From positions 20,420 through 84,419 of the forward strand of contig NZ_JBLXEC010000018.1 of the NCBI RefSeq assembly GCF_048263515.1: a stretch of 64,000 nt of DNA, in the 5' to 3' direction. Position 1 is the first letter of the stretch. Every line of letters starts with the position of its first letter. Positions 5,571 to 39,848 of the stretch are shown here, piece after piece. This stretch comes from Marinovum sp. (lineage in GTDB: Bacteria; Pseudomonadota; Alphaproteobacteria; Rhodobacterales; Rhodobacteraceae). A program made the translations under genes and the position numbers. The notes below the pieces were generated by a model. That model did not search any database. It was not told the DNA's origin and was given only the letters and a program-made list of their open reading frames with translations.

Positions 5571-5640
5571 TAAAGCCGCAGACCGACGCGGCATCGACGC
5601 ACCGCCCCCCGTCAATGACGCCGTGAGACCAGACCTCAGT

Positions 5641-6348
5641 TCACCCCTTGAACGCCGCCTCCAGCGCAATCTCCACCATGTCGCCGAAACTTTTCTCCCG
5701 CTGCTCGGACGGCAGCGCCTCGCCGGTCAGCAGGTGGTCCGACACCGTCAGCACCGCCAAGGCCCGCACCTTGTGCCGCAACGCGAGGATATAGAGCTCG
5801 GCCGCCTCCATCTCGACACCGAGAATGCCGTGGCGGGTCATCTGCTCGTTGAGGTCGGGGCGCTCGTCGTAGAACACGTCGGACGAATAGATCCCGCCCA
5901 CATGGGTCGGCGTTCCCCGCGCCTCGGCCGCTTCGGCCGCCGCCCGCAACAGGCCATAGTCCGCACAAGGCGCAAAGTTCAGCTCGCGCAGGATCCCACG
6001 CGACGGCGTCGACAAGGTGGTCGAGGTCATCGCGATGATGATGTCGCGGACCTTGACGGCTTCCTGCATGGCCCCGCACGACCCGATGCGGATCAGCGTC
6101 TTGGCGCCATAGTCGCGGATCAGCTCGTTGGCATAGATCGACAGCGAGGCCATCCCCATGCCGGAGCCCTGGATGGTGACGCGCTGGCCCTTCCAGGTGC
6201 CGGTATAGCCCAGCATGCCGCGCACCTCGTTGATGCAGACCGCATCCTCGAGAAAGGTCTCGGCCGCCCAGCGCGCCCGGTAGGGATCGCCCGGCATCAG
6301 CACGGTTTCAGCGATGTCGCCGGGCTTGGCCCCGATGTGGATGGTCAT
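5641..6348 (-). CDS. deoD: Purine-nucleoside phosphorylase
   Basis: [35 protein letters not shown]. Confidence 0.95.
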
Positions 6349-6497
6349 GGCACTCTCCGCCGTCAGATTTCGTTTGGCGCAAGAGTGACATCGGGGCTTT
6401 CGGATCACAAGTGGCCGGCAATGGCGCGATTAGCGATTGAAGGCGCGCGACATATCCTTAAGGTTGAATGTGGGAGCAAAAAGGAAGGCATGGCCTC

Positions 6498-7952
6498 ATG
6501 TCGACCCTGACGATCATCATCGGTCTTCTGGCCGGGACAGCGGCCCTCACGGGCCTCGGCGTTGCGCTCCGACAATGGCAGCGGCGCGCCGAGGAGATCG
6601 CCGGCCTGCGCCAGCGCCAGGTGGATCTGGTGGCCGAGAATGCCAGGCTGATGCGGATGGTGGAGTATGACGATCTCACCTCGGCGCGGTCACGGCGCTA
6701 CCTGCGCGAATTGTTCGCCCGCACCCGGCAGGACGGTAGCAACGCGATGATTTTTGTCGATCTCGACGAGTTCAAGAGCGTCAATGACGGCTTCGGCCAC
6801 CGCGCCGGCGACGGTTTCCTGCGGCGCATCGCCCAGGCGCTGCGCAACGAATGCCGCGAGCAGGAGACGCTGTTCCGCCACGGCGGCGACGAGTTCTGCA
6901 TCTACCTGCAGGGCGTGCCGCTCGATGCTGCGGCCGAGCGGGCGCGGACCTTCGTGCAGGTGGTGCGCGACACCTCGGTCGATGTCAGCGGCGTCACTGT
7001 GCGCCGCACCGCCAGCGCCGGCGTGGCGCGGATCGACCCCAAGCAGGACATGATGGGTGCGCTCTATTACGCCGACGAGGCGCTATACGCCGCCAAGCAG
7101 GCCGGCGGCAATTGCGTGCGGGTGACCGAGGGCGAGACGCTGCGGTCGATGATCGCCCGGCGCACCGGGCCGCGGGCCGAGGATCTGGCCGAGGCGCTGC
7201 GCCGCGAGGAGATCACCTATTACGTCCAGCCGATCTACGACACCCGCGCCGGCCGTGCCGTCGGCGTCGAGGCACTGATCCGCTGGGTGCGCAGCGATGG
7301 CGACGTGGTGCTGCCGGCCAAGTTCATCGACATGATGACCCGCAGCCAGCACCGCAACCTGTCACCGCCAGACAGCGCCCTTGTCGAGGTGGCGCAGAGC
7401 TTCTGCCCGGTCAACGACCAGCTCTATTGCGCCTTCAACATTTCGGCGCAGATGCTGGAGCGGCCGGTCGAGGACAACATGGCCTTTGCCAGCGCGCTGA
7501 CCCGCGGGCTGAACCCGTCGCAGGTGGTGCTGGAACTGGTCGAGAGCGCGGCGATCCGCAATCCCGCGCGCGCCAGGGAGGTGCTGCAGCAATTCCGCGC
7601 CCATGGCATCCGCATCGCGCTGGACGATTTCGGCACCGGTTTCTCCAACCTCGAGCGGTTGCAGGACTTCGAGGTCGACATCGTCAAGATCGACCGCCGC
7701 TTCCTGCGCGGTCTCGGCATGGGGCAGGGCGACCGCGGCATCCTGCGGGCGCTGCACGCGCTGTCGCGCGACATGGGCTTTGCGCTGATCGCCGAGGGGG
7801 TGGAGACCGAGCAGGAACTGCAGGTGCTGCAGGAGATCGGCATTCACACCGCTCAGGGCTACCTGCTGGGCCGCCCCGAGACGGTGGATTACTGGCAGGC
7901 CCGGATCAACCAGCCGCTGGCGCCGGGGCTCTGCCTGCGCAAGACCGCCTGA
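6498..7952 (+). CDS. Membrane-anchored GGDEF-EAL diguanylate cyclase/phosphodiesterase
   Basis: N-terminal TM helix; intact HGGDEF, VEALIRW, DDFGTG and AEGVET motifs. Confidence 0.92.
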   Translation: MSTLTIIIGLLAGTAALTGLGVALRQWQRRAEEIAGLRQRQVDLVAENARLMRMVEYDDLTSARSRRYLRELFARTRQDGSNAMIFVDLDEFKSVNDGFGHRAGDGFLRRIAQALRNECREQETLFRHGGDEFCIYLQGVPLDAAAERARTFVQVVRDTSVDVSGVTVRRTASAGVARIDPKQDMMGALYYADEALYAAKQAGGNCVRVTEGETLRSMIARRTGPRAEDLAEALRREEITYYVQPIYDTRAGRAVGVEALIRWVRSDGDVVLPAKFIDMMTRSQHRNLSPPDSALVEVAQSFCPVNDQLYCAFNISAQMLERPVEDNMAFASALTRGLNPSQVVLELVESAAIRNPARAREVLQQFRAHGIRIALDDFGTGFSNLERLQDFEVDIVKIDRRFLRGLGMGQGDRGILRALHALSRDMGFALIAEGVETEQELQVLQEIGIHTAQGYLLGRPETVDYWQARINQPLAPGLCLRKTA

Positions 7953-21338: not shown

Positions 21339-21383
21339 ACGTTTTGCCGTTGTCAAAGCCTTGGCCCATCGCATAAAGTCGCC

Positions 21384-21545
21384 GCGACTCGACGGGAGAA
21401 CCGGCCATGCCGGTGCCGAAGGAGCAACCGCCCCGGAAACTCTCAGGCCCCGAGGACCGTCGAAGTCGCAAAAATCTGGAGAGATCCCGGCCTTGTCCGG
21501 GGCGCCGAAGGGATAACGATCTCAGGCAGAAGGACAGATGGGGCA
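21384..21545 (+). promoter_or_regulatory. Tandem glycine riboswitch
   Basis: Two aptamers with GGAGA...GCCGAAGG...CTC(A)GG signatures; P1 GCGACTCGACGG/CCGTCGAAGTCGC; upstream of gcvT. Confidence 0.93.
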
Positions 21546-26400: not shown

Positions 26401-26423
26401 GGTGGGGTGGAACCCCACCCTAC
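26401..26423 (-). repeat. Isolated REP of the RAYT family
   Basis: Reverse complement GTAG-GGTGGGGT-TCC-ACCCCACC. Confidence 0.85.
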
Positions 26424-36748: not shown

Positions 36749-37132
36749 ATGACAGAGACCCAATCGGCGCCGGACGGAGAGCTGACCCTGCGCACGCTGG
36801 CAATGCCGGCCGACACCAACGTCAACGGCGACATCTTCGGCGGCTGGGTGCTGAGCCAGATGGACATGGCCGCCGGCATCGTCGCCGGCGAAAAGGCGCA
36901 GGGCCGGGTGGCCACCATCGCCGTCGACGCGATGAAGTTCATCCGCCCGGTCAAGGTGGGCGACGTGCTCTGCGTCTACTGCCACATCGCGCGGGTGGGC
37001 CGGACCTCGATGGCGATCGAGGTCGAAGCCTGGGTCCGCCGCGAGCGCATGGGCATGCGCGAGAAGGTGACCGAGGCGATCTTTACCTTCGTGGCGATCG
37101 ACGGCGACGGGAGACCGCGCGAGGTCCCGTAG
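36749..37132 (+). CDS. Acyl-CoA thioesterase (YciA-like hotdog fold)
   Basis: MPADTNVNGDIFGGWVLSQMD. Confidence 0.92.
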   Translation: MTETQSAPDGELTLRTLAMPADTNVNGDIFGGWVLSQMDMAAGIVAGEKAQGRVATIAVDAMKFIRPVKVGDVLCVYCHIARVGRTSMAIEVEAWVRRERMGMREKVTEAIFTFVAIDGDGRPREVP

Positions 37133-37185
37133 GGTGGGTTTCCAACCCACCTTTTCGGGCGCGGTGGGTTGAAAACCCACCCCGC
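37129..37185. repeat. Inverted REP pair (REPIN-like) upstream of RAYT
   Basis: GTAGGGTGGGTTTCCAACCCACC (37129-37151) and reverse GGTGGGTTGAAAACCCACCCCGC (37163-37185). Confidence 0.9.
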
Positions 37186-37225: not shown

Positions 37226-37837
37226 ATGCCGAACTACATTCGCCCGAAGGCCAGAGGGGCCACCATCTTCTTCACCGTCGCCCTCGCACAGCGCGGCGCG
37301 ACGCTTCTGACCGACGAGATCGAGCTGCTGCGCGATGCCGTCAGGGTCACCCGCGCGCGCCGGCCCTTTGTGATCGAGGCCTGCGTGGTGCTGCCGGACC
37401 ACCTGCACATGCTCTGGACCCTGCCATCTGACGATAGCAATTATTCCGACCGCTGGGGCGCGATCAAGGCGCGGTTCTCCAAGAGGGTGCGGCTGAAGCG
37501 GGGGGATGCGGTGGGTTGCAAACCCACCCTACGAGAGGCGGCGTCGTCCGGTTCTGCCCGCTCTGACGTAGAGCGACTGAGGGCGCGCCGCTCGGCCAGT
37601 AAGGTGAAGAAGCAGGACGCCGGCATCTGGCAGCGGCGGTTCTGGGAGCATCACATCCGCGACCGCACCGACTTGGAAAACCACATCAGGTGTTGCTGGG
37701 GCAATCCGGTAAAACACGGGCTGGTCGAGAGGCCGGTGGATTGGCGGTATTCCTCGATCCATCGCGATGTGCGGCTGGGGCGGGTGGAGCCGGAGTGGCG
37801 CTGCGGCGATCTGCGCGACATGTTCGGAGAGCCGTAG
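37226..37837 (+). mobile_element. REP-associated tyrosine transposase (RAYT/TnpA-REP); catalytic Tyr apparently replaced by Cys
   Basis: FFTV, HUH motif PDHLH, WQRRFWEHHIRD, NPVKHG, DWRYSS; flanked by REPs. Confidence 0.92.
37510..37532 (-). repeat. REP embedded in-frame within the RAYT CDS
   Basis: Reverse complement GTAG-GGTGGGTT-TGC-AACCCACC; encodes VGCKPTL. Confidence 0.9.
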
Positions 37838-38005
37838 GGTGGGTCTGTGACCCACCGCAGCGGGGCATTAGGCACGGGGCAAGCCCGCGAGATAACCCCG
37901 TAGGGTGGGTCTGTGACCCACCATGCCGCGGAGCTTCCGCCAAGGCGGTGGGTTGAAAACCCACCCTACGGGCCGCATCGGGTGCGCCGAGACGGCGCAC
38001 CCTGT
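37834..38005. repeat. REP cluster downstream of RAYT
   Basis: GTAGGGTGGGTCTGTGACCCACC at 37834-37856 and 37900-37922; reverse REP 37947-37969; variant hairpin GGGTGCGCCG-AGA-CGGCGCACCC 37980-38002. Confidence 0.9.
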
Positions 38006-38008
38006 ATC

Positions 38009-39664
<1,656 letters not shown>

Positions 39665-39776: not shown

Positions 39777-39848
39777 GGTGGGTTACAAACCCACCCTACG
39801 GTGAAGCGCACGACGGACAGGACGGGTAGGGTGGGTTTGCAACCCACC
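39777..39848. repeat. Divergent REP pair between ettA and MOSC gene
   Basis: Reverse REP 39777-39799 and forward GTAGGGTGGGTTTGCAACCCACC 39826-39848. Confidence 0.9.

Follow-up and report, generated by a model that had tools for sequence, protein, structure and literature searches.

A RAYT gene at 37226-37837 on the plus strand of the window (the whole 64-kb stretch of DNA that was analysed) carries cysteine at the position of the catalytic tyrosine. The reading that we favor, with a probability of roughly 0.6, is a real, young and strain-private TAT-to-TGT loss of the nucleophile, in which the protein has been spared, cleavage has been lost and the fate of the allele is still undecided. RAYTs are textbook examples of domesticated bacterial transposases; the enzyme normally copies short palindromic repeats (REPs) around the genome, and its cellular role is debated. 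By descent, the gene belongs to the canonical E. coli-type lineage (Bertels Group 2, Quentin subclass 2.2-like) and sits in its own REPtron. To judge by its sequence, it would no longer encode a tyrosine transposase in the functional sense, because the defining catalytic feature is missing. The host appears, from the names of homologs, to be a marine alphaproteobacterium of the Rhodobacteraceae type.

The RAYT gene and its active site

The gene, of the RAYT or TnpA-REP type, was taken from the list of open reading frames and codes for 203 amino acids. A profile search gave 160 bits against the NCBIfam model NF047646, "REP-associated tyrosine transposase" (cutoff 80), and Pfam-A gave no match at E <= 0.01. 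The only phmmer match of the protein among all PDB sequences was 4er8_A (E 8.6e-36), which is E. coli TnpA-REP bound to a REP hairpin, from the structure paper of Messing et al. 2012 (PMC3479197). The alignment to 4er8_A runs in two stretches, one on either side of a 41-residue insert. An AlphaFold2 model built on 63 sequences (mean pLDDT 81.5) led Foldseek to the same structure as best PDB match (E 2.5e-16, TM 0.86 on target), followed by the ISDra2, IS200 and IS608 transposases, with 2xo6 among them. Upstream lies a 4HBT thioesterase gene, an arrangement that is syntenic with locus L001 from a related genome. Elsewhere in the window, the only Rfam match at the gathering threshold was a glycine riboswitch aptamer (RF00504, 52.6 bits) at 21383-21469 on the plus strand, and no tRNA genes were found in the 64 kb.

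The preliminary description of this DNA had proposed that the catalytic tyrosine is replaced by cysteine at 37691-37693, and the alignment to the E. coli enzyme bears this out. In E. coli TnpA-REP, Y115 is the catalytic tyrosine and the metal ligands are H59, H61, N119, H123 and E161 (PMC3479197). The phmmer alignment sets "nhirccwgnpvkhg" of the window protein over "hhvdyiyinpvkhg" of 4er8_A, and C156 is placed on Tyr115 because there is no gap between WQ.RFWEH and NPVKHG. The corresponding codon 156 (plus strand) is TGT, followed directly by TGC at 37694-37696; residues 153-165 as a whole read HIRCCWGNPVKHG (37682-37720). Instead of the class-2 motif Y---NP, helix alpha-D thus carries C156-C-W-G-N160-P161. 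In an alignment of 207 related cluster representatives, the same column holds tyrosine in 194. The alignment check for a catalytic tyrosine elsewhere, which the description had suggested, has now been run, and the tyrosine column is not displaced. As it had also stated, codon 156 lies a single transition from TAT, the codon found in the closest relatives, that is, in both the ortholog and the metagenome sequences described below.

The rest of the active site is present, in agreement with the earlier statement that the HUH motif, WQ..FWEH and the full frame are intact over the 203 codons. The HUH motif H59-L60-H61 (37400-37408, plus strand) aligns to H59-M60-H61 of 4er8 and is invariant or nearly so in the 207 relatives. 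The signature WQRRFWEH (37628-37651, plus strand) is supported by both the 4er8_A alignment and the alignment of relatives. The NPVKH motif (37703-37717, plus strand) supplies N160 and H164, which the 4er8_A alignment makes the equivalents of the metal ligands N119 and H123. The C-terminal tail ends in FGEP, where the family consensus is G.FGE, and the equivalence of E202 to E161 rests on this motif, since the tail lies outside the HMMER alignment. No substitute tyrosine is at hand, again as first described: helix 147-163 (RTDLENHIRCCWGNPVK) is confidently predicted by AlphaFold2 and holds C156 and no tyrosine, and the tyrosine nearest to C156 is Y175. Position 150, which is often tyrosine in relatives and was considered as an alternative on helix alpha-D, is leucine here.

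The likeness to E. coli TnpA-REP (RAYT, YafM; PDB 4ER8) is therefore close in fold, in the spacing from WQ.RFWEH to NPVKHG, in the HUH motif at residues 59-61, in the asparagine and histidine metal ligands and in a C-terminal tail ending in GE. The E. coli gene is also single-copy with GTAG-tagged REP hairpins on either side; the window has one copy in 64 kb, and a second copy inside it was ruled out by tblastn. Unlike the E. coli enzyme, the window protein has cysteine for Tyr115 and a 41-residue REP-bearing insert between HUH and WQ, and its host is of the Rhodobacteraceae type.

REP hairpins around and within the gene

REPs were searched for across the 64-kb window with the pattern GTAGGGTGGGT-N5-ACCCACC, allowing at most two mismatches. 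The search returned 10 matches, compared with 0 in 100 shuffles, and six of them lie in or at the RAYT gene (two of the 10 overlap at 37900-37926). On the upstream side, a plus-strand REP at 37129-37151 supplies the TAG stop codon of the thioesterase gene (37130-37132), and its inverted partner, with two mismatches, lies on the minus strand at 37163-37185. On the downstream side, a plus-strand REP at 37834-37856 supplies the stop codon of the RAYT gene itself (TAG, 37835-37837), followed by an inverted doublet with its first arm at 37900-37922 (plus) and its second at 37947-37969 (minus). The same habit of GTAG REPs supplying stop codons was noted by Di Nocera et al. (PMC3733652). The five GTAG-tagged REPs around the gene form the classical REPtron arrangement. 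Beyond the ABC-F gene the pattern search found a further doublet of the same family, at 39777-39799 (minus) and 39826-39848 (plus), and a single copy lies at 26401. On the L001 contig, about 1 kb of additional sequence (5613-6630), with a 264-amino-acid open reading frame on the minus strand, separates the RAYT and ABC-F genes; the counterpart in the window, 37857-38011, holds REPs only.

The insert within the window protein (residues 92-132; 37499-37621, plus strand) is in frame and, by the two-stretch 4er8 alignment, absent in E. coli TnpA-REP. It is modeled as a low-confidence loop (AlphaFold2 pLDDT 44-60 over residues 93-133), and it lengthens the distance from HUH to WQ to 210 nt, whereas RAYTs without an insert have a constant 123-126 nt there. 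The insert contains a perfect GTAG-tagged REP hairpin (37510-37532, minus strand) that encodes AVGCKPTL and is identical to the extragenic copy at 39826-39848; its predicted stem is 8 bp (-12.5 kcal/mol as RNA). Similar in-frame inserts of 50-130 nt between HUH and WQRRFWEH occur in Rhodobacteraceae RAYT genes (the window and loci L001, L002, L082 and L084-L089), each with one or two perfect REP hairpins and with encoded peptides such as VGCKPTL or RVGFQPT, VGWNPTL, GGVNPALR and GRYAGLKPGLR. The type of hairpin varies among genomes and agrees with the REPs outside the gene.

A comparison of two phenylalanine-bearing genes suggests how such inserts come and go. The RAYT genes at L082 353-1000 and L083 112-660 are about 96% identical and differ by a precise indel of 99 nt (33 codons), which corresponds to the whole in-ORF REP doublet and has a CCGATTG direct repeat at its bounds. 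The in-ORF REPIN of this pair thus appears to have been gained or lost as a unit, with the frame kept. In-frame REPs within tnpAREP were reported by Quentin et al. 2018 (PMC6006769), who described them as "unique to subclass 2.4"; here the feature occurs in Rhodobacteraceae genes of an E. coli-like (2.2-type) clade. Our observation extends that report, and the phenomenon itself was already known.

Loss of the nucleophile in the window and in its relatives

The closest protein in a collection of 5.8 billion sequences is P0002, with 89% amino acid identity and TAT at codon 156. Its gene, at locus L001, lies downstream of the same thioesterase gene and is thereby a syntenic ortholog. Between it and the window gene there are 53 synonymous and 23 non-synonymous codon differences (12 of the latter inside the insert), for a dS of 0.58 and a dN/dS of 0.10. 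Closer relatives came from a single study of marine metagenomes, in three runs (X21, X22 and X23). Over the 3' half of the gene their contigs share about 95-97% identity with the window, and each has A at 37692 (TAT). Over codons 125-181, the window shows six synonymous differences from these contigs and a single non-synonymous one, namely codon 156.

With L001 as outgroup, the other private changes on the window branch are synonymous at S125 and V162 and non-synonymous at G193C and R199M, both of which fall in the variable C-terminal tail. The branch thus carries about 5 private changes per 270 bp, codon 156 included; for codons 114-203 the counts, which are small, are 2 synonymous and 3 non-synonymous changes, with two of the three in the variable tail. 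Since the 89% ortholog and the three roughly 96% metagenome contigs all have TAT, the tyrosine-to-cysteine change is private to this genome and young. The preliminary description had offered three alternatives without choosing, namely recent inactivation, a sequencing error, or a nuclease-dead REP-binding protein retained for another role; these TAT codons favor the first.

Replacement of the nucleophile is not confined to the window. The 207 cluster representatives (90% identity) were retrieved with the window protein and a second cysteine-bearing relative, so that both searches used queries lacking the tyrosine. The tyrosine column shows 13 non-conservative replacements in 207 (His 5, Phe 3, Cys 2, Ala 2, Arg 1), which represent about 11 independent events. 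Tyrosine is replaced in P0007, P0014, P0032, P0050, P0071, P0093, P0112, P0149, P0179, P0183, P0203 and P0205 and at locus L059. By comparison, P57, H59, W135, Q136, R138, R145 and P161 are unchanged in all 207, H61 and H164 are changed once each, and N160 changes to Asp only. Nine other catalytic or signature columns together hold 2 changes in 1863 cells, and the difference from 13/207 gives a Fisher p of about 6e-12 when sequences are counted as independent of phylogeny. Random decay should strike constrained positions alike, and the pattern in the tyrosine column does not look like that. Among 80 genome loci there was one further case, phenylalanine in Mameliella alba CGMCC 1.7290. A link between tyrosine loss and the in-ORF REP insert was considered and set aside, as the numbers (13/207 in a mostly insert-bearing set and 1/80 in a mostly insert-less set) are too small.

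Three lineages without the tyrosine appear to have gone on diverging since the loss, with intact reading frames and under purifying selection (dN/dS 0.13-0.27). P0050 and P0125 share phenylalanine at the site (dS 0.53, dN/dS 0.13). P0183, from Pararhodobacter sp. CCB-MM2, has His (CAC) and P0205 has Arg (CGC), with a dS of 0.42 (0.56 in the core) and a dN/dS of 0.21 (0.11 in the core). The clade of P0014, P0032, P0123 and P0124 has phenylalanine, with a dS of about 0.1 and a dN/dS of 0.15-0.27. These values match the 0.10 obtained for the window gene against its tyrosine-bearing ortholog. Furthermore, the tyrosine-less state recurs in independent assemblies, including those of the isolates Pararhodobacter sp. 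CCB-MM2 and Mameliella alba. In P0124 (L087 494-1141), the second histidine of HUH is also replaced (PDHMQAVW), which may mean that the active site has decayed further since the nucleophile was lost. As to REP context, the persistent tyrosine-less loci L084, L085, L088 and L089 have GTAG-tagged REP hairpins only inside the reading frame, within flanks of 1-6.6 kb, and at the tyrosine-bearing L001 and in the window REPs abut both ends of the RAYT gene. Such a distribution would fit decay of extragenic REPs after loss of activity, but the flanks are short.

At 50% clustering, whole RAYT-like groups lack the tyrosine and have Met, Leu, Phe, Arg or Trp instead (P0237, P0273, P0276, P0279, P0282, P0313, P0315, P0318, P0323 and P0327), and further cluster representatives without it are P0234, P0243, P0287, P0288 and P0292. 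One of these groups has also lost the first HUH histidine (P..IHTIW) and reads AP at the NP motif, and another has a degenerate WQRRFWEH motif. All ten tyrosine-less proteins that were scanned (eight 50%-cluster representatives, P0050 and P0183) score above the NF047646 cutoff. Sequences of this kind were put aside in earlier surveys as probably non-functional (202 of the 924 in Quentin et al. 2018, PMC6006769), and our literature search found no paper examining tyrosine-less RAYT sequences. Selective loss of the nucleophile with continued constraint appears to be undescribed, and it is a more interesting lead than the single allele.

These patterns raise the possibility that selection has retained, or is beginning to retain, the cysteine variant as a nuclease-dead REP binder that acts, for example, by occupying or structuring REP hairpins or in regulation. 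The excess of replacements in the tyrosine column over the nine others, the three constrained lineages with intact frames, the recurrence in independent assemblies and isolates, and the existence of entire tyrosine-less groups all point in this direction, and together the relatives make the idea plausible as a general phenomenon. We nevertheless consider it doubtful for the window allele, whose substitution is private and so is without post-mutation history. Persistence of the cysteine state within a clade was looked for and rejected: the two cysteine variants with checkable relatives, from the window and P0112, are both tips, and tyrosine is present in their closest relatives, including P0127, 93% identical to P0112. 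Of the three cysteine-bearing proteins, the third being P0354, this check covered the first two. The loss of the second HUH histidine in P0124 of the phenylalanine clade also looks like decay, the column counts ignore phylogeny and stem from searches with tyrosine-less queries, and earlier surveys treated such proteins as probably non-functional (PMC6006769). A broader version is similarly tentative and, in our estimate, unlikely: nucleophile-less RAYTs would be more than pseudogenes and would form a recurrent class of selectively maintained, REP-binding "dead" transposases in Rhodobacteraceae and beyond, with the window allele as a nascent example. In this class single-step replacements of the tyrosine would recur, and the metal site and DNA-binding surface would be under purifying selection.

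Reality, consequences and meaning of the allele

The young, strain-private loss that we favor presupposes that the base call is correct. If the G at 37692 were instead a sequencing, assembly or consensus error, such as a minority variant carried into a metagenome-assembled genome, the organism would have TAT and an active RAYT. Every related sequence found has A at this position, the protein forms a cluster of a single member from a single contig, and none of the indexed sequencing runs holds the reads of the source genome; the best run shares 0.19 of the sampled words. Among contigs from 12 runs that were aligned to the locus, only relatives span 37692, all with A, and the runs X1 and X2, with near-identical DNA elsewhere in the window, have no coverage of that position. 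A search of JGI metagenome contigs for an exact 28-mer that allows either base (R) at the site gave no match, and the species is not among the GTDB-representative genomes, where the best match has 62% amino acid identity. Against an error, the same branch has at least four further private substitutions in about 270 bp, the site is outside any homopolymer or repeat, and tyrosine-less alleles occur in relatives from independent assemblies and isolates. A true mutation is far more probable, a priori by orders of magnitude, than a consensus error because codon 156 sits among other lineage-specific substitutions, and we regard the error as improbable.

The likely consequences of a true mutation can be read from the chemistry of HUH/Y1 enzymes, in which the tyrosine is the nucleophile at the scissile phosphate and ends up covalently bound to the 5' end (PMC3479197, PMC3333891). 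An A-to-G transition would have exchanged the nucleophilic tyrosine on helix alpha-D for cysteine. The Cys156 protein should still fold, hold its metal through H59, H61, N160 and H164, and be able to bind the REP hairpin and its GTAG foot. It would form no 5'-phosphotyrosyl-DNA intermediate and would thus neither cut nor rejoin single-stranded REP DNA; without the nucleophile, no Mn2+-dependent cleavage of single-stranded REPs is expected. Duplication of REPs and REPINs would therefore cease in this lineage, provided that the genome encodes no other RAYT; a second RAYT acting in trans may lie outside the 64 kb seen. The allele would thus be a young loss-of-function variant and one more route to the elimination of RAYT function. 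The non-random loss of the nucleophile in relatives hints that such alleles may be favored or exapted, and not merely tolerated.

Homologous enzymes are the basis for expecting a loss of activity, and the nearest precedent is the Y132F mutant of ISDra2 TnpA (PDB 2XO6). In that mutant, too, only the nucleophile is replaced, and the protein is inactive and assembles a full active site on DNA without cleavage (PMC3479197). Our literature search found no tyrosine mutant of TnpA-REP, which leaves ISDra2 as the precedent for tyrosine-to-phenylalanine replacement. The ISDra2 case is a laboratory phenylalanine mutant of an insertion sequence transposase, whereas the window carries a natural cysteine allele of a domesticated RAYT.

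Continued activity, with Cys156 as nucleophile or with Y175 or water taking over cleavage, is highly improbable: the metal site and DNA-binding signature are intact and cysteine can be a nucleophile in other phosphoryl-transfer enzymes, but we know of no HUH or Y1 enzyme with a cysteine nucleophile, helix alpha-D has no tyrosine (position 150 being leucine), Y175 is not compensatory because it is conserved in tyrosine-bearing relatives too, and cysteine was not seen to persist in the two lineages with checkable close relatives.

Inactivation of a RAYT followed by decay of its REPINs has been documented, through a frameshift in Neisseria gonorrhoeae and through gene loss in some E. coli (10.1101/2021.07.10.451892). 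These cases, described by Bertels and Rainey, are likewise lineage-specific losses of RAYT function in REPIN-bearing genomes. They destroy or delete the protein, whereas the window allele keeps the reading frame and, by prediction, the fold and binding surface, and loses the chemistry. The window allele is thus another instance of RAYT inactivation, a known event, by an unusual, protein-sparing route.

A natural allele that removes the chemistry and spares the predicted fold, metal site and REP recognition amounts to a ready-made separation-of-function mutant. Comparison of this strain with its tyrosine-bearing sisters would show what becomes of a REP/REPIN population when cleavage stops and binding may continue. 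The allele also bears on annotation, since the NCBIfam equivalog model NF047646 says "tyrosine transposase" with or without the tyrosine. For the family as a whole, loss of the nucleophile far more often than of other catalytic residues, together with lasting purifying selection, bears on the question of what RAYTs do. Should the pattern hold up in tree-aware tests, it would point to a benefit of REP binding by itself.
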